From: Patescibacteria group bacterium
GTDB taxonomy: Bacteria > Patescibacteriota > Microgenomatia > UBA8517
Direction of reading: 5' to 3'
NCBI GenBank assembly: GCA_038062745.1
Contig: JBBTWO010000007.1
Span: 1 to 55,991, forward strand
Length of the DNA stretch: 55,991 nucleotides
Below the pieces are notes generated by a model. It saw only the letters and a list, made by a program, of their open reading frames with translations. It was not told the origin of the DNA and ran no database searches. The first letter of the stretch is position 1. Each line of letters starts with the position of its first letter. Position numbers and translations under genes: made by a program. This document shows positions 7,356 through 38,524 of this stretch, one piece after another.

Positions 7356-7361
7356 AGTAAT

Positions 7362-8081: not shown

Positions 8082-8089
8082 GTGTTTTT

Positions 8090-9118: not shown

Positions 9119-9322
9119 ATAGGCAGTCTCTACAGGTAGTCTCTCTATCAATGTTATATCGTGAAGGCTCTTTAGCAACTTATAATTATTTTCACAAGAA
9201 ATTTTGATCAATATAGAGTATATTTATTTTAGCTACGTTCAAGGAATTTGGTGAAACTCCCAAACTGTGCCGCAACTGTAAAGTCAGAAAACTAGTAGCT
9301 AATTAGAAAGCCCGAGCAGGAA

Positions 9323-10273: not shown

Positions 10274-10300
10274 ACACAATTTGCATAAAAATGGTAAAAT

Positions 10301-12235: not shown

Positions 12236-12236
12236 T

Positions 12237-20720: not shown

Positions 20721-20724
20721 ATTT

Positions 20725-21048: not shown

Positions 21049-21051
21049 GCT

Positions 21052-21384
21052 TTAGAAAATACTAACTACACTACTTAGACCAAGTAGTTTTGCAATTATT
21101 TGAACTATAAAAAAAGCAAAAAAGACAACAATGAAACCAATAAAAGCATTTGTAAGTATATGTTGGCCTTCCTGAACTTTTTTTGGATCCCCAGCAGAGG
21201 TCATGAGTTTAAAACCACCCATTAATAGGTAAACAAGTAATGCAAAACCTGCAATAGCAAAAAGATATGGGAGCAATTCTGTAATAAGTGTTCCAATTTT
21301 TGTATTTGGGTCATACTTATAGTCAGACCCCAATCCCTTCTCTGTTATTGTTTGAAAATTTATTTGTGCTAATTTGTTTGTCAT
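21052..21384 (-). CDS. VirB2/TrbC-like two-helix pilin paralog 2
   Basis: 110 aa with N-terminus MTNKLAQINF and the loop LMTSAGDPKKVQEGQHILTNAFIGFIVV between two TM helices. Confidence 0.6.
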   Translation of the reverse strand: MTNKLAQINFQTITEKGLGSDYKYDPNTKIGTLITELLPYLFAIAGFALLVYLLMGGFKLMTSAGDPKKVQEGQHILTNAFIGFIVVFFAFFIVQIIAKLLGLSSVVSIF

Positions 21385-23800: not shown

Positions 23801-24105
23801 ATACTAATGTTAATTTCGCCTTTGCCATACATTTTAATCAGAAGGTTGATTATTGTTTGATATGGAACTTGGCTTTTTTGAGCTCTAGCCTTTGTTTTTA
23901 TTAAATCTTCATTCTTTACTCTTAAGGTAATACTCTTGGTTTCCCTTAGTTGTCTGTGTGTTTTTGCTGCTTCTACTAATTCATCTCTTATTTTTTCGAT
24001 ATTATCACTTTCGACAAACTCGCCCCTGTTAAGAGCCTCATCTATCTCCTGTTCGTATTTATCGAGAACTAAGTTTTTGAATGGGTCAAATTTGTTTTTT
24101 TTCAT
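23797..24105 (-). CDS. CopG/BrnA-like antitoxin candidate
   Basis: 102 aa. The C-terminal segment KSITLRVKNEDLIKTKARAQKSQVPYQTIINLLIKMY matches the ribbon-helix-helix ...itlRl...A...g.pYQtli pattern. A 4-nt overlap links it to the upstream small gene. Confidence 0.55.
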   Translation of the reverse strand: MKKNKFDPFKNLVLDKYEQEIDEALNRGEFVESDNIEKIRDELVEAAKTHRQLRETKSITLRVKNEDLIKTKARAQKSQVPYQTIINLLIKMYGKGEINISI

Positions 24106-24413
24106 TTTATTTTTCCTAAATATTTTTTGGTTAATTTTCTATTAGGATAGATTGTTTTTAAAAAACGCACTTTCCTTTTTTGATCAATTACATATGGTAC
24201 TACGTACACATACTTATTGATTTCTACAATAAAGATCCTTTGTTTGGGATACTTGTCCTGTCTGGGGTGGGACATTTCAGTTATTAGTTTCCTATTCTCA
24301 AATGCACTAATTACATCTTCAAAATCTACACCCCTTGTCTCTTTTAATATAAGACTTTTCTCCCTTGAATAATCAAAAGGATAATTCATAGATATAGTAT
24401 AGTATTTGTACAT
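24102..24413 (-). CDS. BrnT-like (DUF497-like) toxin candidate
   Basis: 103 aa. Motifs are REKSLILKETRGVDFEDVISAF and VVPYVIDQKRKVRFLKTIYPNRKLTKKY. It is paired with the antitoxin-like gene. The family assignment is tentative. Confidence 0.45.
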   Translation of the reverse strand: MYKYYTISMNYPFDYSREKSLILKETRGVDFEDVISAFENRKLITEMSHPRQDKYPKQRIFIVEINKYVYVVPYVIDQKRKVRFLKTIYPNRKLTKKYLGKIK

Positions 24414-25417: not shown

Positions 25418-27279
25418 ATAAACCCCTTGCCCAAGTTGCTAAATATACAAGCACCCCAAGTGCGAGTAGTTGGGGTCAAGTGCATGACTTCACACCTACT
25501 GATCAAGACAAACTAATAAAAAGAGGCAGACTGGTGGCAATAATAAGTATTACTGGTCTTTCCGGGGGGCAAATTGAATCAATTAACGTTGGCCGGGAAA
25601 TTCTGACCCGTTTGCATGAAGAATATTTTGGAGAAATTGCTACACCCGCTTTTGAGAGTTTAAAAACTTCTATTGAAAATGTTTGCAATGAATTCTCCAA
25701 TGATCAGGTTAAAACCAGTATTGGAGCATTGGCTATATTGGCCGACTCACTTGTTTTTGCAGCTAGTCAGCACATAACTGGTTTTGTTTTACGCCAGGGA
25801 AGTTTGGCAAAGATTATTGATTCCCAAGCTGGATTTTTTTCAGGTAGTGGAAATATATTTCCCAATGACACTTTTTTACTGGCAACGAGTGATTATTTTG
25901 AAAAAATGAGTGAGGGAATAATTAAAGCTTGCCTGGAAAAGCCTTCTGCTCAAGCAATAATTGAATCCCTTACCCCCTTTGTATATGACAATAATACCTC
26001 TCACACTTTTGTAGCTTGTGTAGTTAAATTTGCCACCCCAATCGCTAATACTGAAGCCATTTCGTTTTTTCCCCACCAAACACCTGAAGTGCTTGGTATT
26101 AAAAAAACATTGGTAGATTTTATAGATAGCTTGATTGCCAAGATTCCTGAAAGGCGTGTTATTGTCAGACCTGATTTGGCAGATATGGATGGCAGAAACA
26201 GAAAAAGTAAAGTCTTACTTATTGGAGGAGTTTTATTATTTATTCTTTTGGTGAGCATTGTTTTTGGGAGCATCCAAAGAGCCAATAAGCTTGCCAGATC
26301 AAGATATGAGGATAGATTAATTACTGCCGTCCACCAACTTGAAGAAGCAAAAACACTGGCAACTATTAATCAAGCCCGCGCCCGCGAATTATTGTTGGCA
26401 GCAAGGCAAACCTTGAACGACATTAAGACTGAAGGTGTTAAAGATAATCAAGTGGAAAGCACACTGTCAGAAATAAACTCCAACATCGGCCAAATTGCTG
26501 GCATATATGAAGTAAACCCAGAATTATATTTAGACTTGTCACTTTTGAGCCAAGGACTACGGGGAGATGATATCTCAATTTCAGAAGGCAGAATGTTAAT
26601 TCTTGATAGACAAGGAAAATTAGTTAGTGTGGCCATGGATAGCAAGAAAACCCGCGTCTTGGCTGGACCTGAAAGATTATCAAATGCTCAATTTACTGCT
26701 GTATATGCAGACCGTAATTTTGTTTTGACAGACTCGTCTGTAGTTGAAATATTGGGAACAACGAAAACTGCAATTGACAAAGACTGGGACAAGGCAGCAG
26801 GCATGCATGCCTTTGCTGCCAATATCTATATTCTAGACAAAGGAAAAAACGCAATTTGGAGATATTCAGGATCTGATGCAGGCTTTGGAAGTCAAAATAA
26901 TTGGTTTGCCCCGGGCATTAATGTTGATTTATCAGGAGTAGCTGCTTGGTCAATAGATGGCTCAATTTGGCTGCTTACCAGTAAAGGTGAAATTGAAAAA
27001 TATACCAATGGCAATCCTCAAAACTTTGTCATGAGTGGATTAGAAGGGGATATTGCCGGAAGCGTGGATATTTTTTCAGATGACACAACGCAGTATTTGT
27101 ATGTATTGGACAAAAATAAAGGCAGGATAATAGTACTAGACAAAACTGGAGGATATAAAGCAGAATATGTATCAGATCAAATTAAACAAAGTTCAAAGTT
27201 GGTGGTTTCTGAAGAAGACAAGAAAATAATACTTTTGGTCTCAGACAAATTGTATGAGATACTAATAAAGCATCTATAG
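25414..27279 (+). CDS. Hypothetical bitopic membrane protein (621 aa)
   Basis: It has a ~260-aa N-terminal soluble domain, one TM helix (VLLIGGVLLFILLVSIVFGSI), a coiled segment, and a ~250-aa C-terminal domain with a repeated beta-strand-like character. No motif recognised. Confidence 0.6.
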   Translation: MNKPLAQVAKYTSTPSASSWGQVHDFTPTDQDKLIKRGRLVAIISITGLSGGQIESINVGREILTRLHEEYFGEIATPAFESLKTSIENVCNEFSNDQVKTSIGALAILADSLVFAASQHITGFVLRQGSLAKIIDSQAGFFSGSGNIFPNDTFLLATSDYFEKMSEGIIKACLEKPSAQAIIESLTPFVYDNNTSHTFVACVVKFATPIANTEAISFFPHQTPEVLGIKKTLVDFIDSLIAKIPERRVIVRPDLADMDGRNRKSKVLLIGGVLLFILLVSIVFGSIQRANKLARSRYEDRLITAVHQLEEAKTLATINQARARELLLAARQTLNDIKTEGVKDNQVESTLSEINSNIGQIAGIYEVNPELYLDLSLLSQGLRGDDISISEGRMLILDRQGKLVSVAMDSKKTRVLAGPERLSNAQFTAVYADRNFVLTDSSVVEILGTTKTAIDKDWDKAAGMHAFAANIYILDKGKNAIWRYSGSDAGFGSQNNWFAPGINVDLSGVAAWSIDGSIWLLTSKGEIEKYTNGNPQNFVMSGLEGDIAGSVDIFSDDTTQYLYVLDKNKGRIIVLDKTGGYKAEYVSDQIKQSSKLVVSEEDKKIILLVSDKLYEILIKHL

Positions 27280-27286
27280 TTGTAGA

Positions 27287-27305
27287 TTGGAGTTGACAAC
27301 TCCAA
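27287..27305. terminator. Perfect 9-bp/1-nt-loop palindrome after the 621-aa gene (terminator-like; no U-tract)
   Basis: TTGGAGTTG-A-CAACTCCAA lies 8 nt after the stop codon of the 25414..27279 gene. Confidence 0.35.
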
Positions 27306-27326
27306 ATTACCATGTAAAATGGAAGT

Positions 27327-28466
27327 ATGATTACCAGATTACTCAAACCTGTAACCAGCCAAAGCTTCTTTCTCTTTGGTCCTCGTGGTACAGGAAAAAC
27401 CACCTGGGTGAAGTTTAATTATCCTAATTCTATTTATCTGGATCTTCTTGATTCAAGTCTTTTTACTAGGCTTTTGGCTGATCCAAGTCGGTTGACTTCG
27501 TATATACCACCCGGAAATAAGGAATATGTCGTCCTTGATGAAGTTCAAAGAGTTCCAGAACTATTAAATGAGGTCCACCGTCTAATAGAGTCAGAAAAAA
27601 TTAAATTTATTCTTACTGGAAGTAGTGCCCGCAAACTAAGATCTAAAGGTCACAATCTATTAGCTGGTCGTGCACTCACTTATTTTATGCACCCATTAAC
27701 AGCTCTGGAATTAAGGACAAGTTTTAATCTTAAACATGCGATACAGTTTGGACTCCTGCCTTCAGCGACTAAAGAAGCTGATCCAAGTAAATATCTTTCT
27801 AGTTATGTTGCAACATATCTAGAACAAGAGATCTCTCAAGAGGGGTTAACCCGCAATCTTTCGGCATTTTCCCGTTTCTTGGAAACTGCAAGTTTTTCTC
27901 AAGGGTCAATTATAAATATGTCGGCTATTGCTCGTGACTCTTCTGTTGAACGCAAGGTAGTTGAAAATTATTTTTCCATACTTCAAGATTTGCTAATTGG
28001 CTACAAATTGCCGCCTTTCACAAAACGAGCAAAAAGGAGACTTATGTCTCAACCAAAGTTTTATTTTTTTGATACAGGGGTTTATCGTTCTATTCGTCCC
28101 GCAGGACCTCTGGACGCGCCTGAAGAAATTGGAGGAATTGCACTTGAGACTCTTTTTTTTCAAAACCTTCTTGCTATTAATCAATCTCTAGGTTTGAACT
28201 ATGACCTTTATTACTATAGAACGGCAACTGGTATAGAAGTTGACTTTATAGCTTATGGGGAAAAGGGGATTATTGCTTTTGAGGTAAAGCACTCAAGTAA
28301 ATTCTCTGAATCAATGCTTAAAGGTCTTAAACATTTTTTGCAGGATTATCCAAAATCAAAAGCTTACTTACTTTACATGGGAGACAAAGTACTTTATCAG
28401 GACAACATTACTGTATTGCCGATTAAAAATGCTTTAGAAACTTTGGATAAGATACTTGTTTCCTAG
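27327..28466 (+). CDS. AAA+ ATPase of the AAA_14/DUF4143 type
   Basis: 379 aa. Walker A is FFLFGPRGTGKTTW and Walker B-like is YVVLDEVQRVPELL. The C-terminal segment ..YYYRTATGIEVDFIAYGEKGIIAFEVKHS.. is the DUF4143 nuclease-like D...E.K tail. It is a paralog of 48571..49749. Confidence 0.75.
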   Translation: MITRLLKPVTSQSFFLFGPRGTGKTTWVKFNYPNSIYLDLLDSSLFTRLLADPSRLTSYIPPGNKEYVVLDEVQRVPELLNEVHRLIESEKIKFILTGSSARKLRSKGHNLLAGRALTYFMHPLTALELRTSFNLKHAIQFGLLPSATKEADPSKYLSSYVATYLEQEISQEGLTRNLSAFSRFLETASFSQGSIINMSAIARDSSVERKVVENYFSILQDLLIGYKLPPFTKRAKRRLMSQPKFYFFDTGVYRSIRPAGPLDAPEEIGGIALETLFFQNLLAINQSLGLNYDLYYYRTATGIEVDFIAYGEKGIIAFEVKHSSKFSESMLKGLKHFLQDYPKSKAYLLYMGDKVLYQDNITVLPIKNALETLDKILVS

Positions 28467-28489
28467 GTTTTCTGGCTATTAACTAAAAA

Positions 28490-28641
28490 TTGCTAAATAT
28501 TTTTATGGAGGACATGAAGTCATACAACTTAATATTTGTAGATTGTGAAGGGCATGGACCTGCTCCTACATTTAATGACGATGCTTTATTTGAGTTCGGT
28601 GCTGTCAAATATACGCCACAATCAAAAGTCTCTGCAAGTGG
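28490..28641 (+). pseudogene. 5' fragment of a small gene interrupted by an insertion
   Basis: The ORF reads (M)KSYNLIFVDCEGHGPAPTFNDDALFEFGAVKYTPQSKVSASG. It then runs into GC-rich sequence with an implausible translation (RVRKLSNGTPPLTASPWLPARFQLAARLLFF). Confidence 0.5.
28619..28641 (+). repeat. Direct repeat, left copy (CAATCAAAAGTCTCTGCAAGTGG)
   Basis: It matches 30046..30068 at 22 of 23 positions. Both copies encode QSK(V/I)SASG in the frame of the flanking ORF fragments. Confidence 0.85.
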
Positions 28642-28921
28642 ACGCGTACGAAAATTGTCGAATGGTACTCCGCCGCTGACGGCGTCTCCGTGGCTCCCCG
28701 CTCGCTTCCAGCTCGCGGCTCGCCTTTTATTTTTCTCACGTGCGAATTCCTGGCTTAACGGCCATTTCTTTTGGCAAGGAGAAGTTTAGAAGGAGCTAAA
28801 CTAGAACAAAGAAATAGGAAAATTTTTTTGAAATTAACTTTCTAAAAAGTAGGCTGGTTGTTTCGGATTACTCTTACTACCAAACCTATTTAAAAGCGCT
28901 CAGGGAGCGCGCTTCACCTAC

Positions 28922-29209
28922 TTATTCAAATGCTATGTCTTCCTCTTTCACTTTTTCAGAAAGAAATACTTTCATAAGTGATTGGTAGGGTACATCTTTT
29001 TTATTAGCTACTCTTTTTAGGCTGTTTAAAAGGTGCACTGGAAGACGAAGAGTAATACTTTTGGTACTAGGCTTAAGATTTGGAAATTCTACCTCTACAG
29101 CTTTGCTCCAATCTATATAATCAGTTGAGCTGTGAGTATTCCAAAACTCTGCTTCTTCATCTTCATTTTTAAATTTAGGTATAGTTTTTAATTTTTTCAT
29201 ATAATTCAT
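28922..29209 (-). CDS. brnA: BrnA-type antitoxin (CopG-like)
   Basis: 95 aa. Motifs are IPKFKNEDEEAEFWNTHSSTDYIDW and KSITLRLPVHLLNSLKRVANKKDVPYQSLMKVFL, the typical BrnA pattern. It lies downstream of brnT. Confidence 0.75.
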   Translation of the reverse strand: MNYMKKLKTIPKFKNEDEEAEFWNTHSSTDYIDWSKAVEVEFPNLKPSTKSITLRLPVHLLNSLKRVANKKDVPYQSLMKVFLSEKVKEEDIAFE

Positions 29210-29253
29210 ATTTTCATATTATTCATCTAAAAAAGGTTAATATTAAACTGCTC

Positions 29254-29571
29254 TTACTTTTTCTCACCTCCTCCGTAAATTGTTCTTTCTTTTTTGTCTT
29301 GATTTCTTGCTGAAATAACTCTTATTTTTTCATTTCTTATCGTAAAAGCTATAAATAATAATCGTTGATTGTTGGTTTTTCCTAAAGCTTGATATCTATT
29401 CTCACTTTCTGTTGAGTGTGACGGATCTTGCCCAACAATCAAAGGTTTGTTGAAAAATACTTCTTCACATTCTGTCCAATCAACATTATGTTTTAGTTTA
29501 TTTTTGTTTAAATTTCCTTTGTCCCATTCAAATTGAATTTGTTTGGGTAAGGTAACTTTCTTTCTGGGCAT
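29254..29571 (-). CDS. brnT: BrnT-type toxin (DUF497 ribonuclease family)
   Basis: 105 aa. Motifs are FEWDKGNLNKNKLKHNVDWTECEEVFFNKPLIV..DPSHSTESENRYQALGKT and LFIAFTIRNEKIRVISARNQDKKERTIY. Confidence 0.8.
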   Translation of the reverse strand: MPRKKVTLPKQIQFEWDKGNLNKNKLKHNVDWTECEEVFFNKPLIVGQDPSHSTESENRYQALGKTNNQRLLFIAFTIRNEKIRVISARNQDKKERTIYGGGEKK

Positions 29572-29627
29572 ATCTGTACATTATGGTAATATACATTGAA
29601 GCTTTTGTCAAGTATGCCTAAGAATGG

Positions 29628-30017
29628 TTGACTTCAATTCTAATTGCTATACAATCTACTGAAATGAACGCCGAAAGAGCGGTTTTTGGTCCCATGGCAA
29701 GAGAGGAGGTAATTAGTCATTTATCTCCAGAAGAAGCGCGAGCTGTGCTTCAATATCACCAAGCTAGGGAGAAAGAAATGGATTTGAAGGAATGCAAAAC
29801 ATTATCCGACTTGGAAAGTTGTGTAAAAGGTGGTGTACAGGGAATGATGGTAAACGAATTGGTAGCGGTGGCAGTATTTAATCGTGGGCAAGAAGGTATT
29901 GATTCCGAGAAGCTCGTTGCCTTAAGAGACGCTATTTTGCAAGATGACATTAATAGAGATAGATATAATTTGGTCAAAGATAAAGATGGAACAATAAGAA
30001 GATCAAAACATCTTTAA
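29628..30017 (+). CDS. Hypothetical protein (cassette cargo)
   Basis: 129-aa ORF from a TTG; an internal ATG gives MNAERAVFGPMAREE.... No motif recognised. It is divergent from brnT. Confidence 0.45.
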   Translation: MTSILIAIQSTEMNAERAVFGPMAREEVISHLSPEEARAVLQYHQAREKEMDLKECKTLSDLESCVKGGVQGMMVNELVAVAVFNRGQEGIDSEKLVALRDAILQDDINRDRYNLVKDKDGTIRRSKHL

Positions 30018-30018
30018 G

Positions 30019-30040
30019 TGGCCATGCCCATTTGGCCACT
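30019..30040 (+). terminator. Stem-loop GTGGCCA-tgcccatt-TGGCCAC directly after the 129-aa ORF
   Basis: A 7-bp perfect inverted repeat starts 2 nt after the TAA. No T-tract follows, so its terminator function is uncertain. Confidence 0.3.
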
Positions 30041-30045
30041 GCTCC

Positions 30046-30068
30046 CAATCAAAAATCTCTGCAAGTGG
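30046..30068 (+). repeat. Direct repeat, right copy (CAATCAAAAATCTCTGCAAGTGG)
   Basis: It matches 28619..28641 at 22 of 23 positions. Confidence 0.85.
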
Positions 30069-30241
30069 TGAAAGAGCGATAAATCTTGAACTCCTTACCA
30101 CAGCGATACTATCACATTGGAAGCCTCTCGATATAGACCCTCAATTAATAATCCTAAATGAACTAAATAAAAATCAGGCACAAACCGAGCGTGGATTTGC
30201 TTATATGTACTAATCAAGAAGGAAACTATTGAACTTTACTG

Positions 30242-32035
30242 CTATTTGTTTGTTTTTCTTGTTTTATTACCGGTTCTAAATCGCAATTTTGCTCTAGGAA
30301 AGCCTTTCTTGGTAGCGATGTTTGCAATAGCGTCAAACTTTTTCATTACCGGAAAGTTATTAGGATATAAGTATCCTTTCCTATTAAGAAAATTTTTAAA
30401 TTGTATTACTTCTCGAACATATCCATCGGCGTTTCGTTTAGAAAACATTTCTGAATACTCAAAAAGAATATCTTCGCCTAGCATCGCTCCATGTTTTGCT
30501 ATCATTGCTTCCAATGTTTCCACCTCTTCCGCATCTAAAATAATAAAGGGCATAACTGTGTAATTTTCATAAAAAGACCTTGCTAGTTTGCTAAAATCCT
30601 CATAGTATTTACGGTTGTAGGCGTCCATGGGCACAGTTTCACCAACAATTAACAGTGGAATTAGTTTTTTATTACCAATTTCTATTGGAAGTTTCGACTT
30701 ACCACTCTCAATCTCTTTAATTGTTCTTGTTATCTGCCCCAATCCTTTAACTTTTTCGTTCCCAGAAAAAAGCTGTTTTAGGGTCGGTTCCATGTCCACT
30801 TTCTTTCCAGTTAGCCTTGCCTTGTAAGTCCAGTGAGCATATTTTGTCTCAACGCAAAAGATTGCTTTCGAACCCACAATGACCCCGTCAAACAATTCAC
30901 GACTATTAGCACTTGGATTTTTTATATAACTATTTCCAAAAGCTCCACCTAATCGTTCGTGTATGTATGCCTCAAAAGCATTACCCCAAACAGTAGGAAG
31001 GTCGTCTCTGGTTCTTTTGTCTCCAATCTTGCGCAAATAGTTTTCAAGAAGCCAATAAATACCTTCTGTTGCCTTATCCATTAAAAAGTCCGGCGCAGGA
31101 CACACAAAACACTCTTTATTAAATGGAATAAAAGGACATTGTCTTAATTGCAGAAAATTATAAGGATAAATATCAGTTCCGCCTAATAATTCAGAAACAA
31201 CTTTTTGATAACCGCTTTCATAATTGTCTACATCTAATAAAAGTAAATTTACGACAGCATCCACCTCTTTCTCATCAAGTTGAGCCTGCTCAAAGTATTT
31301 CCTCTTACAGGTAATCCACTGCTTTGTAATATCTGGTTCTTGGGTAGTGTTGTTTACCCAGCTCACCAGTAAATAGAAGCAGAGAGATAAATAATCGTTA
31401 AGTTCAATTCCACTTGTGGCCGTTGAGAATAACTTCTTTATATCAAATTCTGGGTGCAACTTCTCGATTTTAAGAAACAAATCTTTAAATCTAGCTAATC
31501 TATATGGCAATCTTTCTCTTACCATAAAAAAGCTTTGCCTCGCCAGAAATTCTCTTAACCTCTCTCTTTCCACTTCCACAGGAAGTACAATTCCCGAATG
31601 AGTATCAGGCATGCAAACGTCTGAAAGAATTAATAACCACTTACCTACCAAGCCTACGTCTTCTGGTTTTACAAGTCTTCCACCTTCCTTTTTTGCTTTT
31701 TCTAATATGACTTTATATAAATTTAGTATCGGCTGTTCTGCAAAAAGAACCCAATTGTCGGTTGGCGATTTAGATATTGCTTCTAATATCTTTTTCCTGA
31801 ATTCCAAGTCGCCGGCAAAAATATCTCGAACCAGTTGAACCTGATTGTTTCTATCTGAAAACCCATTTTTGGAATATAGTTTTACAACTATTTTTGAAAG
31901 TGTTTCCAATAGAGAATAAAAATTAAACTCCGAAACCTCATTCCTCACTCTTTCAATCCCGCCACCGTCAAAACCGTAAATTTGTTCATAGCCATAAATG
32001 ACCAACAGGTAATCTTGAAGTGTCCCTTTTTTCAT
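30242..32035 (-). CDS. Hypothetical 597-aa protein with C-terminal PD-(D/E)xK-like nuclease motif
   Basis: Long clean ORF. The segment ..RELFDGVIVGSKAIFCVETKYAHW.. fits the D-x(n)-E-x-K core. The N-terminal ~380 aa are helical with no motif I recognise. Confidence 0.4.
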   Translation of the reverse strand: MKKGTLQDYLLVIYGYEQIYGFDGGGIERVRNEVSEFNFYSLLETLSKIVVKLYSKNGFSDRNNQVQLVRDIFAGDLEFRKKILEAISKSPTDNWVLFAEQPILNLYKVILEKAKKEGGRLVKPEDVGLVGKWLLILSDVCMPDTHSGIVLPVEVERERLREFLARQSFFMVRERLPYRLARFKDLFLKIEKLHPEFDIKKLFSTATSGIELNDYLSLCFYLLVSWVNNTTQEPDITKQWITCKRKYFEQAQLDEKEVDAVVNLLLLDVDNYESGYQKVVSELLGGTDIYPYNFLQLRQCPFIPFNKECFVCPAPDFLMDKATEGIYWLLENYLRKIGDKRTRDDLPTVWGNAFEAYIHERLGGAFGNSYIKNPSANSRELFDGVIVGSKAIFCVETKYAHWTYKARLTGKKVDMEPTLKQLFSGNEKVKGLGQITRTIKEIESGKSKLPIEIGNKKLIPLLIVGETVPMDAYNRKYYEDFSKLARSFYENYTVMPFIILDAEEVETLEAMIAKHGAMLGEDILFEYSEMFSKRNADGYVREVIQFKNFLNRKGYLYPNNFPVMKKFDAIANIATKKGFPRAKLRFRTGNKTRKTNK

Positions 32036-32080
32036 ATCAATTGAAGTATAACAAAGGGTACAATTATCTTAATTAAAGCC

Positions 32081-32527
32081 ATGATAAAACCTCAAAATCC
32101 GTCAAATCCAGCAGAAAACGCCATTTTGAAACCCTACAAGGAAATTGAATTTAATGAATTTATAAAGTTGATAGGTGGTGCCAACATTCCAAGCTGGTCT
32201 ATCTTTGCAGAAGTGTTGGGTGTTAACAGGGAAACAGTCGCCAGATGGAAAAAACATCCACTGGCGCAAGCGGCCATTATAAATGCGATTAACGAAAACC
32301 TACGAAAAATGGAGACTTCCGGAAGGGAAGATTGGAAAATGTACAGGGAGATATTGCGAATGTTGGGAGTGAAAGACAAAAGAAGTATTGAAAATTATAG
32401 CCATGACAATACGAAAAGTATTCTTGACCAACTTGAAAAAGAAAATCTGCAAAGCGATTATGTCAATTTGGCCGAAAAAGCGGCGGAGGAACTTTCTAAA
32501 CGCGAAGTTGTATCAATGAGAGCGTAG
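32081..32527 (+). CDS. Small HTH protein (phage terminase-small-subunit-like / regulator)
   Basis: 148 aa. The segment WSIFAEVLGVNRETVARWKKHPLAQAAIINAI is a helix-turn-helix. The C-terminal tail is acidic and coiled. Confidence 0.45.
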   Translation: MIKPQNPSNPAENAILKPYKEIEFNEFIKLIGGANIPSWSIFAEVLGVNRETVARWKKHPLAQAAIINAINENLRKMETSGREDWKMYREILRMLGVKDKRSIENYSHDNTKSILDQLEKENLQSDYVNLAEKAAEELSKREVVSMRA

Positions 32528-32542
32528 AAGTATAATTCAACC

Positions 32543-33610
32543 ATGTCAGACAATAATAAAGGCGTGCAAAAGACTACTTCTTTACAGGCATGGAGCAAAT
32601 TAACAGAAGAGTATTTCGGAAAAAAATTAAGAATTGAAGACAGAAAAGATAGAGAAATTATCTACGGACTTCTAAAGGAATACAATTTACCCCATGAAAG
32701 ATTTTATGCTTTCAAATCAGGTGACCAAATTAAAAAAGAGGAATTTCTTGAAGCTATTGGCGATTTAGGCCTTCCATATTGGATTAGTGCCACACCCAAA
32801 TTGGGTATTGAGGATTTAGGTAGAGTTTCAAAATTAGGCTTGGAAAACGCAGATGATGGATGGAATTTCCTTCAATCGCTAGATAGACTAAAAGATTTTA
32901 AAGTAATTATTATGCAATACCCAGACAACATCGAGTTCAAAGGAACCGTTGTTGTTTCAAGAAGTCTAAATGGAATTGCAGAATTTGTAGAAGGAGATAA
33001 ACACCTCCAATTAATTTCTGGTCAAACCTTTACCGACCCAATGCTTTTTAATCAACAAAAGATTATTAGGTATTCAGACACAATAGAAAAAGAACACCAA
33101 GACGAACTTTTTTCTTTAATATCAAACAGAGCCGGACATTATGAATTTCAATACGGCTCCACTCCCGATAAGCCACAAAGCATAATTTTCTTTGATTTTA
33201 ATGACGAATTGGCTTACGAGGACGTTGATGCTCTTTTTAATGACCTTATTGTTTATTATGAAAAAGCCGAAGAAGGGATAAACGGATTTGATGTAAAAGG
33301 AATTCCAGCAAGTTTGGGTAAAGCTAAAGGGAAGGTTAAGATTATTATGAGTAGTGACACCGATAGTTACGGCACAATCAAAGAGGGTGATGTATTAGTT
33401 AGTGATACTACAAACCCAGATATGACGCCGGTTATGAAGAAGGTGTCAGCAATAATAACTGACATGGGAGGTGTTACAAGCCATGCGGCCATTGTCACGA
33501 GAGAGCTTGGAATTCCCTGTATCGTTGGAACTAGAAACGCAACCCAAGTATTAAAAGACGGAATGGAAGTTGAAGTAGATGCCTTTAGTGGAACAATAAG
33601 GATTATTTAA
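32543..33610 (+). CDS. Mini PEP-utilising-type protein: ATP-grasp-like N-domain plus phosphohistidine swivel domain
   Basis: 355 aa. The C-terminus GKAKGKVKII..GDVLVSDTTNPDMTPVMKKVSAIITDMGGVTSHAAIVTRELGIPCIVG is the PEP-utilizers mobile domain with the phospho-His (TSH). The N-terminal part (IIMQYPDNIEFKGTVVVS..AEFVEGDKHLQLISGQTFTDPMLF) resembles the end of PPDK_N/ATP-grasp. No third (substrate) domain is present. Confidence 0.65.
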   Translation: MSDNNKGVQKTTSLQAWSKLTEEYFGKKLRIEDRKDREIIYGLLKEYNLPHERFYAFKSGDQIKKEEFLEAIGDLGLPYWISATPKLGIEDLGRVSKLGLENADDGWNFLQSLDRLKDFKVIIMQYPDNIEFKGTVVVSRSLNGIAEFVEGDKHLQLISGQTFTDPMLFNQQKIIRYSDTIEKEHQDELFSLISNRAGHYEFQYGSTPDKPQSIIFFDFNDELAYEDVDALFNDLIVYYEKAEEGINGFDVKGIPASLGKAKGKVKIIMSSDTDSYGTIKEGDVLVSDTTNPDMTPVMKKVSAIITDMGGVTSHAAIVTRELGIPCIVGTRNATQVLKDGMEVEVDAFSGTIRII

Positions 33611-33611
33611 A

Positions 33612-34955
33612 TTATTTTCCTCCTAACCTATCTTCAAAAAGTTCCTTTGCTTTCACTTCCAACTCTTTGTATCCAATTTCTTTTGCAATATCCCAAGCTT
33701 GTTTAGAGTATTCTTTAGACCTCTCTAAATCACCAAAAAATCTGAGATTATTGGCAAGGTTATGTAGGGAGTTGGAAACGCCTTCTTTATCTCCAAGTTG
33801 TTCATATAAATCCTTTGCCTCTAACAGGTTTTTGGTAGAATAATGCTCAATCTCGCCAGTATCCAACCCCATCTCTTTTGTTAAAAAATATGAAAGCCCT
33901 GCCGCATTCCCAATAGTAACTTTGACATGAGCAAGAGCATCCCAATTTTTGGCTTTAATAGCTTCTTCCTGAGCTTCCCGGACTAGCACATCTGCCTCCC
34001 TTGAACTTTGTTTAACAGTTTCACTCAATCTTTGAATTTCATCGCTCCCCATTAGTCCATAACCGATTTGCCTATATCTGGTTTCTGCATAGAGCGCCAT
34101 TGACGCTTCAAACATTTTATGGTGAATTAGATACGCTTTATGGCCTTTTAGTATTGCAGATGAGGAAAGGTCGCCTAACTGGTTGGCAAGCTCAATTCCT
34201 TCTTTGCATAGTGCAATAAAATAGCCGGTTTTTTGAACTTGTTGGTCTGTTGATAAAATCATGTTTATAATTGCCTGCAATTTTACGTGTCCTCTTGCAT
34301 TGTGATAGGCAGTTTCGGCGTATTTGTAAGCCTCCTTCATTTCTGCTTTTTGCCAATGTTCAAAACTCTTTTTTATATTCTCGTCATCCAATACATCAAT
34401 GGACGATATAATTGGTTTTTGTTTACCTTCATTTTCAATTCCAAGTTTTTTCATAATCGCAACCACATTCTTATCCGTTTCTGAAACTATGGTTTTAATC
34501 TTTTGAGTATCTTCTTTTATGTCGGGCACAGCCAGATTTGGATATTGGCTCATTATTTTGGGGTTTTCAGAAAGAAGTTGAGTTAATTTACGTGCACCAT
34601 AGGAAGTTCCTTCGAGTTTATATTTGGAGACTTCTTCACGGAGAAAGAGTACAACGTCTGTGGGTAAGTCTAACGGGGTTACAAAAATCCAATCTTTAGC
34701 TTTTAGTTTTCTTTCCTCGATTGTCTTTGAAATCGTAGTCAAATCGCTTTTGATTTTGGCCTTGTAATTCTTTTTGGTTAATTTATCTCTATCTGGAAAA
34801 TAAATTGCAAATATCTTTTTATCTGGAACATAACCATCCATTCCCAAATCTCCTCCACTATCATCAAATGATTGAAAACTTGCAAAAACAGCATGAAAGA
34901 GGGTATCGCAAAAATCTTGGAATTCTTTTGGGCTCGTGAAATCAGTTAACTTCAT
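33612..34955 (-). CDS. TPR-repeat protein with N-terminal restriction-endonuclease-like (Mrr-like?) module
   Basis: 447 aa. The N-terminus KEFQDFCDTLFHAVF..FDDSGGDLGMDGYVPDKKIFAIYFP recalls the G.DgGiDg core of Mrr-type domains, but I see no clear (E/Q)xK. The C-terminal half holds several TPR-like repeats (e.g. EGVSNSLHNLANNLRFFGDLERSKEYSKQAWDIAKEIGYKE). Confidence 0.4.
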   Translation of the reverse strand: MKLTDFTSPKEFQDFCDTLFHAVFASFQSFDDSGGDLGMDGYVPDKKIFAIYFPDRDKLTKKNYKAKIKSDLTTISKTIEERKLKAKDWIFVTPLDLPTDVVLFLREEVSKYKLEGTSYGARKLTQLLSENPKIMSQYPNLAVPDIKEDTQKIKTIVSETDKNVVAIMKKLGIENEGKQKPIISSIDVLDDENIKKSFEHWQKAEMKEAYKYAETAYHNARGHVKLQAIINMILSTDQQVQKTGYFIALCKEGIELANQLGDLSSSAILKGHKAYLIHHKMFEASMALYAETRYRQIGYGLMGSDEIQRLSETVKQSSREADVLVREAQEEAIKAKNWDALAHVKVTIGNAAGLSYFLTKEMGLDTGEIEHYSTKNLLEAKDLYEQLGDKEGVSNSLHNLANNLRFFGDLERSKEYSKQAWDIAKEIGYKELEVKAKELFEDRLGGK

Positions 34956-34997
34956 GCACCAATTCTATCAGAAGCCACAAACCAATCTACAAACCTA

Positions 34998-35258
34998 TCA
35001 CGGAAGCAGTTTGTCATTGTCTATTTCAAGCCCGTTAGCGAGTTTAACAATAGTTTTTAACATTGGTTCTCTGTTGCCATTCTCCAACTCATTAACTGTT
35101 GTTAAATCCAAACCTGCTTTAGCGGCTAACTCTTCTTGCGATAAACCTTTCTGTTTACGTATTTTTCTTAAATTTTCTCCAAACTTTTGATTAAGTGTAG
35201 CCATCTCTTGCAAAATTATGGCCTTGATGCCATACTTGTGATATGGCGAGGATGCCAA
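34998..35258 (-). CDS. XRE-family helix-turn-helix transcriptional regulator
   Basis: 86 aa. The segment NLRKIRKQKGLSQEELAAKAGLDLTTVNELENGNREPMLKTIVKLANGLEID is the canonical Cro/C1-type HTH. Confidence 0.8.
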   Translation of the reverse strand: MASSPYHKYGIKAIILQEMATLNQKFGENLRKIRKQKGLSQEELAAKAGLDLTTVNELENGNREPMLKTIVKLANGLEIDNDKLLP

Positions 35259-35294
35259 ATTATGAAGCTGTGTTGAGGCTAAATTTATTAGGGG

Positions 35295-35762
35295 GTGATT
35301 AAATTGAAGAAATTATTTAAATACATTCTTATTGGTTTTGTGGGATTGCTTGTATTGGGAGCTGTTTTTGGAGGGTCAAGCAAAGATAAAGGTACAGAAA
35401 ACAAAGCAACAACTAAACCAGAAGCACAAAAAGCACCAGAGGTTCAAAAAGTTGAAATACTAACCTTTGTTAAAGAATTTGATGAAAACCAACTCTCGGC
35501 AGAGGATAAATACAAAGGAAAATACGTGGAATTTAGTGGTTATATTAAAAACATAAGCGAAGACATCACGGGTTCACCCTATCTTTCAATAAATCCTAAA
35601 CCCGACCAGTATTATTTTGGTACTTATGTTCAATGTTTTTTCAAAGACAAGTCAGAATTAACAGCTTTGAAAAACGGCCAAAAAATTACTGTTCAAGGAA
35701 AAGTTGACAGTCAAACGTTGGGGAATATCCTTATTAAAGATTGCAAAGTCGTCACACAATAA
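35295..35762 (+). CDS. Membrane-anchored OB-fold (tRNA_anti-like family) protein
   Basis: 155 aa. It has an N-terminal TM (YILIGFVGLLVLGAVFG). The segment FDENQLSAEDKYKGKYVEFSGYIKNISED..PYLSINP...YVQCFF.DKSELTALKNGQKITVQGKV matches the tRNA_anti-like OB pattern common in prophage regions. Confidence 0.55.
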   Translation: MIKLKKLFKYILIGFVGLLVLGAVFGGSSKDKGTENKATTKPEAQKAPEVQKVEILTFVKEFDENQLSAEDKYKGKYVEFSGYIKNISEDITGSPYLSINPKPDQYYFGTYVQCFFKDKSELTALKNGQKITVQGKVDSQTLGNILIKDCKVVTQ

Positions 35763-35884
35763 TTGGTAATTGACGAGAACTATTTTTCGTTCTATCGTGG
35801 TGTGATATTCACATTTGTGAATAAGTAAATTGTAAAGCGTAGCTTTCCGCTAAGTACATCGAAAGTCAGATTTGTGTCTCTAGT

Positions 35885-35925
35885 AGACCTTTAAACCATA
35901 GCGATATGGCACGGAGGTCTTTTTT
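35885..35925 (+). terminator. Rho-independent terminator-like hairpin with T-tract
   Basis: The outer stem is AGACCT (35885-35890) pairing with AGGTCT (35915-35920). The inner stem is CCATA-gcga-TATGG. TTTTT (35921-35925) follows. Confidence 0.5.
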
Positions 35926-36096
35926 ATGGCTAAAAAACTAGAGCACAAAAACAAAGAACCAGAAAACGAGAGTTTAAATACTAATGGGGTTGTTGATTTA
36001 ATGCACCTTCTTGCAGGGGTGAAAATTAACAATGATGAGGCCGAACTAAATAAAGTGAGCATGAAAGACAATTTAGGAAGAAGAATTTTGTTTTAA
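35926..36096 (+). CDS. Small ORF (56 aa) immediately upstream of the recombinase; possible directionality/excision factor
   Basis: The ORF reads MAKKLEHKNKEPENESLNTNGVVDLMHLLAGVKINNDEAELNKVSMKDNLGRRILF. It falls below the ORF-track length cut-off and has no recognisable motif. The call rests on position only. Confidence 0.25.
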   Translation: MAKKLEHKNKEPENESLNTNGVVDLMHLLAGVKINNDEAELNKVSMKDNLGRRILF

Positions 36097-36137
36097 TCCG
36101 TAACTAAAATCTTCTGTTAAAATCGTAGTTACAGGAT

Positions 36138-37685
36138 ATGGAAGAGAACGAACCAGATATAACTAAATTCAAGTATGTACTCTATGCTAGAAAATCTACA
36201 ACGGACGAGAGAGGTCAAATTCGCTCCATTAAAGACCAGATTATAGATTGCCAGAAGCTATCTTTGAGATTAGGCATAACCGTTATTGGTCAACCCCTTA
36301 TAGAGAAAAAATCCGCCAAAATTCCCCATCGACGACCGATATTTAGAAAAATGATTAACGATATAAAAGCAGGTACATATGATGGAATTCTCGCATGGAA
36401 CCCAGATAGGCTAGCGAGAAATATGTTAGAAGGCGGGGAAATTATAGATTTAATTGACCAAGATATTATTAAAGATTTAAAGTTTGCCACCCACCACTTC
36501 ACAAAAGACGCGAACGGAAAAATGCTTTTAGGTATGGCATTTGTCCTGTCAAAGCAGTATTCAGACGATTTATCACAGAAAATCACAAGAGGAGTTAGGG
36601 GTAATTTTGCAGAAGGAAAAGTAGCAACTCCCAAGTATGGGTATGTAAATGAAGACGGTTTTTATAAGCCGGATGGTAAAAATCATGAACTAATGTGCGA
36701 GGCTTGGAAGATGAGAATACAAGGAACTTCGATTGAAAACATTGTTTTTTTCTTACAGAAAAACGACCTTTACAAAATAGTTAAGGCTACCGGCAAAAAG
36801 CTACGAATAACTATGCAAAAGTTAAGCGATATTTTTAAAGACCCGTTTTATTACGGGGTTCTAATAAGTAAAAAAACAGGAAACAAAATCGATTTAAGAG
36901 AAGTATATAATTTCAAGCCTGCCGTAAGTGAAGAAGGATACTTTGCTGTTCAAGAGCTTACATACCACAGAATAAAGCCTACAAAGCCCCACAAGATGTC
37001 TTTTTATCCTTTCCGACAAATGGTGTATTGCTCTTTTTGTAGTTCGTCAATGGTAGTTGCTCCTTCCACCGGACACACTAAAAGGTACTTATTTTTCCGA
37101 TGTGACAATGAAAATTGCTCACGAAAGAAAAAGTCTATAAGAGCCAAAATTGTCGTAAATTTCATATACGATTTTCTTCAAAACGGCCTTAATTTTAGTG
37201 AGGCAGAATATAAAGATTATTTAAGCAAAATAGTGATTATTAGTGATGAAAAAAGGCAAAAAACCAAGCACGACCTACATAATATAGAGGGAGTTCTTAA
37301 ACGTGTTTCTCGTGAGATTAGCGAAAGGAGCCTAAAAATGGTGGACTTTAGCGAAATCAAGAGGGTGCAAGAGGAAAACGCTAACCGAATTAAGAAACTT
37401 CAAATCGAAGAAGAGGAGTTGAAGACAAACATAAATAAGCTCAAAAACGAAATCAAGGAACCAGAAAAAGATAGATTAACAGTCGAACAATTCTTGAACT
37501 TATCAAAAAATGCCTTAAATATCGTTCAATCAGCGGATGTAGAGATAAAAGACCAAATTACCCGTTTAATTTTCTTGAACTTTTTTGTTGACGAGGAGAA
37601 AGTTACGAATTTTCGGCTCAAAGAGCCATTTGCTACCCTCATAAAACAGAGGGAGTTCCTATCGGGTGGAGATGGAGGGAGTTGA
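36138..37685 (+). CDS. Large serine recombinase (resolvase/invertase N-domain, recombinase domain, zinc ribbon, coiled coil)
   Basis: 515 aa. The N-terminus YVLYARKSTTDERGQIRSIKDQ contains the catalytic Ser context, followed by ..ILAWNPDRLARN... The zinc ribbon is CSFCSSSMVV..RYLFFRCDNENCSRK. A C-terminal coiled coil follows (KKLQIEEEELKTNINKLKNEIKE). Confidence 0.9.
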   Translation: MEENEPDITKFKYVLYARKSTTDERGQIRSIKDQIIDCQKLSLRLGITVIGQPLIEKKSAKIPHRRPIFRKMINDIKAGTYDGILAWNPDRLARNMLEGGEIIDLIDQDIIKDLKFATHHFTKDANGKMLLGMAFVLSKQYSDDLSQKITRGVRGNFAEGKVATPKYGYVNEDGFYKPDGKNHELMCEAWKMRIQGTSIENIVFFLQKNDLYKIVKATGKKLRITMQKLSDIFKDPFYYGVLISKKTGNKIDLREVYNFKPAVSEEGYFAVQELTYHRIKPTKPHKMSFYPFRQMVYCSFCSSSMVVAPSTGHTKRYLFFRCDNENCSRKKKSIRAKIVVNFIYDFLQNGLNFSEAEYKDYLSKIVIISDEKRQKTKHDLHNIEGVLKRVSREISERSLKMVDFSEIKRVQEENANRIKKLQIEEEELKTNINKLKNEIKEPEKDRLTVEQFLNLSKNALNIVQSADVEIKDQITRLIFLNFFVDEEKVTNFRLKEPFATLIKQREFLSGGDGGS

Positions 37686-38055
37686 ACCCTCGTCCGAAAA
37701 ACTATTTGCAAAACTTCTACAAGCTTGTTCAGTAAATAATATTTCCTTTAAAAATTAAGCCCACTGACAGGCATTTTAAAGTAAGACCTAGTTGTCTTAG
37801 ATTTAATTCTCTAGATCCAAAGAATTAAATAGCATCTCGAATTGGTTACACCCTTTTGATCCGGTCGAGAATCAGATCTCAGGATGCTAGTTGCTGTTTA
37901 GGCAAAATGAGCATAGGCCATTGCTGGCTTTTGCGCCATAACTAGGTTAGATATTTGCTTTTTTGCATTTATCTTTTTAACTCTTTTTTACGAGTATTAG
38001 TCAAACTCGGCTTGCAGTCTTGTCAAAGTGCCTTCCGTCGAAACCGGTCATCCCC
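37665..38055 (-). ncRNA. ssrA: tmRNA (SsrA), one-piece
   Basis: The minus strand begins GGGGATGACCGGTTTCGACGG (canonical tmRNA 5' end). It ends ..GGACGAGGGTTCAACTCCCTCCATCTCCACC (T-arm plus an acceptor complementary to the 5' end with one G-U pair). An internal tag-like frame ends ..AMAYAHFA-TAA. It lies 4 nt downstream of smpB. The ends are accurate to about 3 nt. Confidence 0.85.
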
Positions 38056-38059
38056 AGGT

Positions 38060-38524
38060 TTACTTGTCCTTGTATCCTCTTAGCTCTCGTAGAGTATTTC
38101 TTTCTATATCGTGAGCCTTGATATCAGCTTTCTTTTCAAACTTTCTTTTAGCCTTAGCTAAGGCTAATTCGAGCTTGTAAAGACGGCTTTTCCGACCATT
38201 TGGTCGTAAGCTGCGCTTAGTGTACAGGGAAACGGGTACCAAAGTCAACCTTCTGGCCTTCATTTTAGCCTCGATGGTGCGGATTTGATCTCGGTGGAGA
38301 AGCAGCTTTCTGCTTCTGGTTGGGTTGTACTCCTTTTTGCCTTCTATGGGGATGTGGGCATTCACCAACCAAACCTGGTTTCCAATTATTTTAGCAAAGG
38401 CTTGGGAGATATTTACTCTGCCCAGCCGAATAGCTTTGGCTTCACTTCCTTGCAGCTCAATACCTGCCTCTACTTTCTCCAGAAGCTCGTAATCAAATTT
38501 GGCCCGTTTATTGAACACTCGCAT
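38060..38524 (-). CDS. smpB: SsrA-binding protein SmpB
   Basis: 154 aa. Motifs are NKRAKFDYELLEKVEAGIELQGSEAKAIRLGRVNISQAFAKI and YNPTRSRKLLLHRDQI. Confidence 0.92.
   Translation of the reverse strand: MRVFNKRAKFDYELLEKVEAGIELQGSEAKAIRLGRVNISQAFAKIIGNQVWLVNAHIPIEGKKEYNPTRSRKLLLHRDQIRTIEAKMKARRLTLVPVSLYTKRSLRPNGRKSRLYKLELALAKAKRKFEKKADIKAHDIERNTLRELRGYKDK

Follow-up and report, generated by a model that had tools for sequence, protein, structure and literature searches.

The 55,991-nucleotide stretch of DNA from an uncultured groundwater patescibacterium analyzed here (contig JBBTWO010000007.1 of assembly GCA_038062745.1, positions 1 to 55,991; hereafter, the window) carries, at the extreme 3' end of ssrA, the gene for transfer-messenger RNA (tmRNA), a mobile unit that occupies positions 30065-37665 (7,601 bp) plus a 4-bp core, GTGG. 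With a probability that we put at about 80%, this unit is a non-phage integrative element that was inserted by its own large serine recombinase (LSR) and that carries its attachment site, attP, inside the LSR gene. The evidence comes from an empty site in public sequence data, from a detached 3' end of the recombinase gene at the opposite end of the element, and from the recurrence of the same layout at tRNA and tmRNA genes of numerous bacteria of the Candidate Phyla Radiation (CPR).

Junctions, empty site and the divided integrase gene

The target gene, ssrA (37665-38055, minus strand), was called by ARAGORN together with its tag peptide, and the Rfam tmRNA model RF00023 is matched over its full length at 37664-38055 (164 bits). 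Directly upstream of ssrA, in the chromosomal flank, lies smpB (38060-38524, minus strand; Pfam SmpB, E = 9.5e-38), which is syntenic in the related loci L005, L009 and L112. From the other side, the LSR gene (36138-37685, plus strand), assigned with Pfam and PHROGs, converges on ssrA and encodes 515 amino acids (aa) in what we take to be the integrated, tail-swapped form of the enzyme. The last 5-6 codons of this open reading frame (ORF) and its stop are antisense of ssrA: the final codons, GGT GGA GAT GGA GGG AGT TGA (37665-37685), correspond in reverse complement to the CC, the discriminator, the acceptor strand and the T-stem of tmRNA and to a portion of its T-loop, and the stop codon TGA (37683-37685) sits within the T-loop sequence TTGAA. 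On these points, the initial annotation was accurate: it had placed ssrA on the minus strand with smpB upstream, recognized the convergent 515-aa LSR abutting the ssrA 3' end, and noticed that the last seven LSR codons are reverse-complementary to the tmRNA acceptor and T-arm. The overlap is more than a coincidence, given that the same overlap, with the reading frame held constant relative to the T-loop, recurs in about 35 of 40 homologous loci.

Pfam detects in the 515-aa protein the Resolvase (PF00239, E = 5.9e-19), Recombinase (PF07508) and Zn_ribbon_recom (PF13408) domains, the latter two above their cut-offs, and the protein matches the PHROG 'integrase' annotation with E = 4e-55. The residues Y16, R18, K19 and S20 are invariant among 30 homologs (alignment A1), the catalytic Ser/Arg motif being R18/S20. 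The AlphaFold (AF2) model of the homolog P0070, which is 55% identical to the window LSR, contains long helices at 356-441, and Foldseek comparison of this model with the solved SPbeta, Bxb1 and PhiC31 integrases gave E values of 1e-18 to 1e-13, the range extending to 1e-9 when the Listeria LI integrase is included. The model is confident up to the helix 499-509, and the point at which the gene is split falls just beyond it. Judging from sequence and fold comparison, the 515-aa protein is a bona fide LSR with the resolvase domain, the recombinase domain and a zinc ribbon into which a coiled coil is inserted.

The boundaries of the element are established by public sequencing data, namely, Logan contigs of 7 runs, which are assembled contigs only and, as such, drop rare variants. 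The groundwater run X1 includes a contig of 70 nt (depth 6) in which position 30064 is followed directly by position 37666, so that 7,601 bp are skipped, and at this empty-site joint, the four letters GTGG fit either side. Also in this run, the element is assembled on its own, as a 7,671-nt contig (30025-37695, depth 10.6) located between flank contigs, and the contig that covers 26500-30054 continues into the 70-nt empty-site contig. In another run, X2, contigs span both integrated junctions, and an independent motif search yields the same element size of 7,601 bp.

The core at the left junction (30065-30068, plus strand) is identical to that at the right junction (37666-37669, plus strand), the opposite strand of which corresponds to tmRNA C74, the discriminator A73, and acceptor positions 72-71. 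The left junction, in which the B' flank precedes the core and the P arm of the element follows it, reads ...ctgcaa GTGG tgaaagagcgataaatc TTGAAC tcc..., the right junction reads ...ctatcgg GTGG agatggagggag TTGAAC cctcg..., and the two have only GTGG in common. The element-side arm (P arm; 30069-30095, plus strand) consists of TGAAAGAGCGATAAATC and TTGAAC (30086-30091), the latter 17 nt from the core, whereas in the chromosomal arm (B arm; 37670-37692, plus strand), which is the acceptor strand, T-stem and T-loop of tmRNA, TTGAAC (37682-37687) lies 12 nt from the core. The predicted attP is ...CCTATCGG GTGG TGAAAGAGCG..., and the attB junction reads ...CTCTGCAA GTGG AGATGGAGGG....

The B arm is kept in the empty-site contig of X1, and the sequence from 37670 onward is identical in the empty allele. 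Because the crossover lies within GTGG, the acceptor strand and the T-arm are chromosomal and are not supplied by the element, contrary to the earlier suggestion that the insertion provides part of the functional ssrA 3' end. The boundaries given at that stage, 27287-38055, likewise have to be revised, the left end being set at 30065 by the empty-site contig. The underlying idea of a mobile island with an LSR at the ssrA 3' end is upheld by the empty-site variants in X1, L009 and L112; alignment to relatives, one of the checks proposed with it, revealed empty flanks in L009 and L112 and the same flanks with other cargo in L005. The proposed search for the circular junction and the empty site succeeded in part, in that, among the contigs of public runs, the empty site was recovered in X1 but no circle junction was, and the proposed comparison of GC content failed to mark the island, the values inside the element being no different from those of the surroundings. 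A second copy of the tmRNA 3' end was not detected in the window, either among direct and inverted repeats (up to 3 mismatches in 15-27 nt) or in Smith-Waterman scans for an ssrA fragment, where the scores remained within the range of shuffled controls. The lack of a repeat is consistent with the 4-bp core and agrees with the initial annotation, which had considered the other junction unfindable by that route; that junction could, nevertheless, be located via the detached 3' end of the recombinase gene.

This detached end, the tail module (SGERAINLELLTTAILSHWKPLDIDPQLIILNELNKNQAQTERGFAYMY and a stop; 30064-30213, plus strand), comprises about 48 codons and has no in-frame start codon. We traced it via the syntenic relative L005, in which a 63-aa ORF at the left of the variable segment is homologous to the C-terminal extension of the long homolog P0070 (558 aa). 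In a tblastn search, window positions 30058-30210 (plus strand) are 67% identical to the L005 module over 51 aa (E = 9e-21); a hidden Markov model (HMM) of the tail matches the window tail with E = 3e-26 and finds such a module, in the same orientation and upstream, in 13 loci besides the window. The reading phase of the LSR ORF at the core is xGT GGx, and that of the left-end module at its own copy of the core is identical. The integrase gene is, then, split between the two ends of the element. In the element arm, TTGAAC is read as CTT GAA CTC (LEL), and in the tmRNA arm, the 5-bp shift (17 vs 12 nt) puts TGA in frame, which explains the location of the stop codon in the T-loop.

The ratio of nonsynonymous to synonymous substitution rates (dN/dS) between the window and L005 tails is 0.145 overall and 0.063 beyond the att arm, that between the tails of L016 and L017 is 0.156, and conservation, which includes an I, a W and a C-terminal aromatic motif, extends far past any att-site footprint. 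These substitution patterns demonstrate purifying selection on the tail, and such selection would require recurrent expression of the fused form. Uninterrupted LSR genes do exist: in those of P0070 (558 aa) and LSR1 of L090 (563 aa), the core, 17 nt and TTGAAC are found inside the ORF, and the product of about 557 aa that is expected from excision matches the lengths of these two proteins. A search of 5.8 billion proteins with the tail profile returned only orphan ORFs of 44-79 aa and no new fused genes.

Both uninterrupted genes are found in linear genomic surroundings. In the P0070 locus (L006/L007/L008), the LSR gene is accompanied by Replic_Relax, DUF87, NYN, methyltransferase and SLFN/AlbA_2 genes, and a tRNA gene is missing from the vicinity; the locus may represent a plasmid, an element akin to integrative and conjugative ones or, else, a tandem insertion. 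In L090, positions 4903-13115 are occupied by a tandem array. It opens with the C-terminal remnant of an LSR that is joined to a tail module; next come cargo genes, among them two of the FtsK-gamma type and one of the MerR/HTH_17 (excisionase-like) type, then the intact 563-aa LSR and, finally, an element of about 3 kb with a 514-aa LSR. The array suggests that occupied sites can be reused by further insertion. P0070 was considered as a candidate for the excised form and dropped, given its linear, apparently chromosomal or plasmid context and the possibility, evidenced by L090, of an origin by tandem insertion.

The recombinase family across CPR bacteria

The window LSR has more than 3,600 database homologs, of which the top 120 share 52-80% identity. 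Nearly all of these 120 proteins end in ...LKEPFATLLKxRxxxSSRG followed by 3-4 variable residues or by a tail like RTRTSDLCFPKAAL, and these endings are translated antisense tRNA. Our survey of loci in GTDB genomes produced 44 assessable cases, and in 40 of these, the LSR 3' end is inside a convergent tRNA or tmRNA gene. The genomes involved belong to Roizmanbacteria, Daviesbacteria, Gottesmanbacteria, Saccharimonadales, Peregrinibacteria, Gracilibacteria, Paceibacterota and others. Across the 40 loci, the targets cover 12 tRNA identities and tmRNA: tRNA-Pro is occupied in 18 loci, tRNA-Leu in 6, tRNA-Asp and tRNA-Gln in 3 each, tRNA-Ser in 2, tRNA-Lys, Ile, Met, Val, Ala, Gly and His in a single locus each, and tmRNA in one locus, plus the window.

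The left ends of these elements could be sought without recourse to tail homology. The search pattern consisted of the 4-nt core, N17, TTGAAC (at least 5 of the 6 bases) and an in-phase ORF of 20-80 codons, and a match was found in 27 of the 40 loci; among the controls, the opposite strand gave 4 matches, the downstream side 3, and random cores 2.05. The ORFs past the core in these 27 loci have 40-56 codons, the elements are 2.9-11 kb long, the junctions share 4-12 nt, and the P-arm consensus is aG....ag.gA...a.CTTGAACt; the same layout recurs in five further metagenome loci. The split architecture is, accordingly, conserved throughout the family. In all 27 loci, TTGAAC is located 12 nt from the core in the tRNA or tmRNA arm and 17 nt from it in the element arm, the latter spacing being fixed by the search criterion, although it was first seen in 12 loci that had been found by tail homology alone.

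These spacings can be compared to the zinc-ribbon-motif registers described for LSRs, bp 11-19 in attB and bp 16-24 in attP (PMC3783163), with which they are compatible if, as seems probable, the crossover dinucleotide consists of the last two bases of the core. The difference between 12 and 17 nt, therefore, looks like the 5-bp register shift between attB and attP that is typical of zinc-ribbon binding by LSRs in the B and P arms.

Two further features of the family loci became apparent. In several tRNA-Pro loci (L002, L013 and others), the B' flank at the far junction reads ...TTG before the core, that is, an encoded CCA, and the element-side sequence beside the tRNA (...CTA) lacks CCA, so that integration removes the genomically encoded CCA end. 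In three loci (L093:1553-4926, L095:2044-3128 and L094:158-601), a tail module is followed at a distance of 0.3-3.3 kb by a convergent tRNA, and no recombinase lies in between; these look like decayed or deleted elements that left behind orphan ORFs of 45-80 aa.

Cargo and chromosomal surroundings

Immediately ahead of the LSR gene, the window element encodes a conserved 56-aa protein (35926-36096, plus strand) that belongs to no Pfam family and is a candidate directionality factor or regulator. It is 46% identical to a 56-aa ORF of L005 and is related to small ORFs that adjoin the LSR in L006 and both LSRs in L090, and an HMM of this protein has a same-strand match in 18 of 33 elements, always beside the LSR gene or the tail module. 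In either position, the gene would be adjacent to the integrase in the circular form, and we infer that its product is a partner of the LSR, be it a directionality factor or a regulator. Minimal elements of 2.9-3.0 kb could be delimited, and the one that was inspected in full, L016, consists of the tail, the small protein, one more ORF and the LSR.

The remaining cargo is heterogeneous. A 597-aa protein (30242-32035, minus strand) has no Pfam, PADLOC or PHROG match; next to it is encoded a 148-aa putative DNA-binding protein of the helix-turn-helix (HTH) type (32081-32527, plus strand), which shows only sub-threshold matches, to the Terminase_5 HTH (E = 0.0069) and to PHROG DNA-binding (E = 9e-4). 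The label 'small-terminase-like' of the initial annotation is backed by the first of these matches, and we do not retain it. There follow a 355-aa protein with a C-terminal PEP-utilising-enzyme mobile domain (32543-33610, plus strand; PF00391, E = 6e-28), a 447-aa protein with C-terminal TPR repeats (33612-34955, minus strand; TPR_12, E = 3.7e-5, under the curated cut-off), an XRE-family HTH regulator (34998-35258, minus strand; HTH_3, E = 1.7e-16, along with control-protein-like matches in PADLOC), and a membrane-anchored OB-fold protein (35295-35762, plus strand) that is tRNA_anti-like (PF12869, E = 2.4e-23) and resembles Sie-like superinfection exclusion proteins (PHROG 8545, E = 2.4e-16). 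For three of the cargo proteins and the 56-aa partner, searches of Pfam, PADLOC and PHROGs yielded no function.

Outside the LSR element, positions 27280-30064 form an accessory segment that is retained beside the empty site in X1 and is absent from L005, L009 and L112. It encodes an AAA_14/DUF4143 ATPase (27327-28466) that matches the PADLOC candidate defense gene PDC-S01 (E = 1e-57), the toxin-antitoxin pair BrnA (28922-29209) and BrnT (29254-29571), recognized by Pfam and PADLOC, and a 129-aa ORF; this segment may be an older island that is devoid of its integrase. When the left-flank protein was searched against genome contigs, no relatives were found, and these were obtained from the protein database. 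The gene order in L005 is SpoIID, DUF5657, a 642-aa gene, variable genes, LSR, tmRNA, smpB, that is, the same flanks as in the window, with an LSR that is 77% identical and a different cargo. In L009 and L112, the flank gene, tmRNA and smpB are present, and the LSR element is absent.

In L112, the 3' end of tmRNA is repeated directly and without mismatch over 19 nt (GTGGAGATGGAGGGAATCG; 11885-11903 and 11970-11988); one of the copies starts immediately behind the stop codon of the flank gene, at a distance of 85 nt from ssrA. This repeat resembles a scar left by an insertion of another kind, the classical tRNA-gene (tDNA) type, with the crossover in the T-loop, so that in this lineage, two kinds of integrase would have made use of the same ssrA end. 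At the corresponding position of the window, directly after the stop codon of a 621-aa gene, the sequence 27280-27310 (TTGTAGATTGGAGTTGACAACTCC) loosely resembles the tmRNA 3' end; as a candidate ssrA relic, it was rejected, 7.9% of random 47-nt windows scoring as high.

Several features elsewhere in the window were recorded as well. A second toxin-antitoxin-like pair (23797-24413; BrnT/DUF4258-like and CopG-like, with weak Pfam matches) is located between the SpoIID gene and the next conserved gene, a place that is taken by an AbiEii gene in L112 and by an unrelated gene of 198 aa in L009, so this appears to be a second small variable slot. Upstream of SpoIID, five small hydrophobic proteins are encoded on the minus strand (19978-22043); their counterparts in L009, L110 and L112 carry T4SS_pilin (PF18895), and this is a conserved pilin-like cluster. 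Positions 9229-9302 match the AdoCbl-II (cobalamin) riboswitch aptamer with 36.9 bits, against an Rfam gathering threshold of 36.5.

Proposed mechanism, alternatives and relation to known integrases

The mechanism that we propose would involve recombination within the core GTGG, at tmRNA positions 74-71, by an LSR that recognizes, on the chromosomal side, the tmRNA acceptor and T-arm with TTGAAC 12 nt from the core and, on the element side, the same motif at a distance of 17 nt. With attP inside the LSR ORF, integration would cut the gene after about codon 509. The LSR body would keep all catalytic and DNA-binding domains, read on into the ssrA antisense, gain GDGGS (about five codons) and stop at the TGA contributed by the T-loop TTGAA, and the natural last 48 or so codons would be stranded at the opposite extremity. 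Upon excision, the tail would be reunited in frame with the body, restoring a protein of about 557 aa. The tail swap may report the integration state and modulate the direction or activity of the enzyme, and the 56-aa neighbor is a candidate partner in excision. The occurrence of both empty and occupied alleles lends indirect support to the predicted attP x attB recombination by this LSR.

Several observations weigh against this interpretation. No circular (attP) junction was found in the contigs of the 7 runs, and the predicted attP sequence has no match in the JGI metagenome or IMG/VR collections. The empty-site contig differs by a single-nucleotide polymorphism (SNP) in the left flank, and the empty allele may come from a strain that was never occupied rather than from excision. 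The fused gene in L090 can be attributed to insertion beside a resident element, and hence, uninterrupted genes are no proof of an excised form. In the AF2 model, which was built from an alignment without tail ORFs, the tail has a predicted local distance difference test score (pLDDT) of 34-39. Finally, the P' and B' arms contain no clear TTGAAC motif, so that the symmetry expected of LSR att sites is seen on one side only.

Some of these same facts are what one would predict under 'suicidal' integration, in which the loss of the tail inactivates the LSR, the element is locked in, and the empty allele is ancestral: the circle junction is missing from the contigs, and the SNP perhaps betrays a different strain. 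Precedent comes from the SSV family, where attP is inside the integrase ORF as well (PMC7253208), and decay demonstrably occurs, as witnessed by the LSR-less tails near tRNAs (L093, L094, L095) and frameshifts in L018 and L022. However, about 9% of the protein is detached and all folded domains remain, about 40 of the 44 integrated copies keep an intact ORF of about 510 aa across 28-80% sequence divergence, the small partner protein is conserved, and the tail is under purifying selection. Inactivation by integration, thus, seems improbable, albeit clearly less so than the other alternatives.

There is little room for a classical tDNA island, in which attP would carry the ssrA 3' end, the end of tmRNA would be element-derived, and a displaced fragment would lie near 27.3 kb. 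The 21-nt overlap of the LSR ORF with ssrA is compatible with such an arrangement, and so are the perfect 19-nt repeat in L112, which points to events of this kind in the lineage, and the weak similarity of 27280-27310, at the same place, to the tmRNA end. Yet, that similarity is at the level of random windows, no significant ssrA fragment is present anywhere in the window, the empty-site contig demonstrates the chromosomal origin of everything starting at 37670 as well as the retention of 27280-30064, and the junctions share GTGG only. We regard this scenario as highly improbable, and think even a little less of a degraded prophage with an integrase that abuts ssrA by chance. The PHROG 'integrase' match of the LSR, the Sie-like OB-fold gene and the XRE regulator all have a phage-like appearance, but neither Pfam nor PHROGs detect virion structural and packaging genes (capsid, tail, terminase) or lysis genes in the element, the elements of the LSR family are small (2.9-11 kb, and 2.9-3.0 kb in the minimal cases), and relatives of the LSR family are absent from 2.9 million IMG/VR contigs. 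Thus, when the cargo was originally said to fit an island or a degraded prophage, the first option was the right one, and the second did not withstand the search for structural genes and viral relatives. That the LSR is a fixed chromosomal gene, its overlap with ssrA a product of compaction and the tail an unrelated small ORF, is scarcely conceivable: CPR genomes are compact and GC content does not set the element apart, but empty sites exist, cargo varies, the tail is in phase at a fixed spacing in 27 of 40 loci vs 2-4 in controls, and fused forms of the LSR are known.

The integrative element with attP inside its LSR gene could be endowed with a more far-reaching property, which we put forward tentatively and consider rather doubtful when its two parts are taken jointly, namely, that the tail swap is a built-in directionality switch and that reading of the T-arm via the zinc ribbon makes the targets retunable. 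The circular element would produce the integrase of about 557 aa, with the tail favoring attP x attB recombination, and the integrated 515-aa form, together with the 56-aa partner, would be competent or poised for excision; directionality would not depend solely on a separate factor but would be written into the geometry of the att sites. With the T-arm read in this way, a few base changes in the core and the acceptor-proximal arm could be enough to shift the choice among tRNAs and tmRNA.

With the phage-type LSRs (Listeria A118/LI, Bxb1, PhiC31 and SprA of SPbeta), the window family shares the domain order, the fold and the minimal identity of the junctions, and, as far as the B and P arms are concerned, also the placement of the motif, which in those systems too is shifted by 5 bp toward the center on the host side (PMC3783163). 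It differs from them in that the target is the 3' end of a tRNA or tmRNA gene rather than a protein-coding or intergenic site, that attP is within the integrase ORF so that integration would swap the C-terminal 48 or so aa, that the elements are non-viral and 3-11 kb in size, and that the motif is found on one arm of each site only. A closer parallel in terms of the target are the ssrA islands of Dehalococcoides, where a serine recombinase of about 540 aa, DsiB, is encoded beside the ssrA 3' end (McMurdie 2011, PMC3146451). Like the window family, these islands are small, carry cargo and form tandem arrays (compare L090). They are, however, flanked by a 20-bp ssrA direct repeat, with insertion in the T-loop, and carry a module of six genes, among which are that of DsiA, a small serine recombinase in addition to DsiB, and RecF-like, ParB-like and Mom-like genes (PMC3146451). 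Compared to that published description, the window element has a 4-bp core at positions 74-71, no repeat and a split integrase gene, and among its genes, Pfam and PHROGs detect no second recombinase and no RecF-like, ParB-like or Mom-like domains.

The division of the gene has a counterpart in the archaeal tyrosine integrases of the SSV type, in which attP is in the integrase ORF and integration into a tRNA gene partitions the gene (PMC7253208). As in SSV, the integrated and free forms in the window family would encode different proteins. The SSV integrases are tyrosine recombinases with an unrelated fold and chemistry, whereas the window element has serine recombinase domains only; moreover, SSV integration results in two inactive fragments, whereas in the window, a single ORF retains all catalytic and DNA-binding domains, and the exchange is limited to a short tail. 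The intP/intX gene of the myxophage Mx8 is reportedly a further case of an integrase gene partitioned by attP.

The common view is that large serine integrases do not go for tRNA genes. Predicted exceptions are the DsiB islands of Dehalococcoides and a few tRNA-island elements of Prochlorococcus. The islands catalogued by Islander and TIGER and the Prochlorococcus tycheposons resemble the window element in their site-specific insertion at tDNA 3' ends and in their accessory, defense-like cargo. In the classical tDNA islands, however, the tDNA is regenerated from the copy in the element and a displaced fragment is left, neither of which is seen here, and the integrases are overwhelmingly tyrosine recombinases, in contrast to the serine enzyme that is the only recombinase of the window element. 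According to the Islander paper, targeting of tRNA genes by serine integrases is not known, and among the Prochlorococcus tycheposons and related cryptic elements, 27 of 937 carry an LSR (bioRxiv 10.1101/2020.12.28.424599). In the literature, we found no description of a CPR clade of LSRs that combines targeting of tDNA ends with a split integrase gene, and the tRNA- and tmRNA-targeting, split-gene group of LSRs is, apparently, undescribed.

The findings have immediate consequences for annotation, since they account for hundreds of odd C-termini of predicted proteins (...SRGAGN, ...RTRTSDLCFPKAAL) and for orphan ORFs of 45-80 aa, and they provide base-precise limits for small CPR islands that are missed by tools relying on tDNA repeats or by a 5-kb size cut-off. 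On the applied side, the family offers natural attP/attB pairs with a readable 5-bp register shift, and control of LSR directionality by a C-terminal tail, which is relevant to integrase engineering, becomes testable. For the biology of CPR bacteria, the implication is that an entire clade of LSRs, with thousands of database homologs and spanning Microgenomates, Saccharibacteria, Peregrinibacteria, Gracilibacteria and Paceibacterota, appears to be specialized on the last bases of tRNA and tmRNA genes and to keep its attachment site inside its own gene, an arrangement earlier described for archaeal tyrosine integrases. Should the tail swap indeed function as a switch and the reading of the T-arm be retunable, these elements would represent a naturally reprogrammable integrase family.

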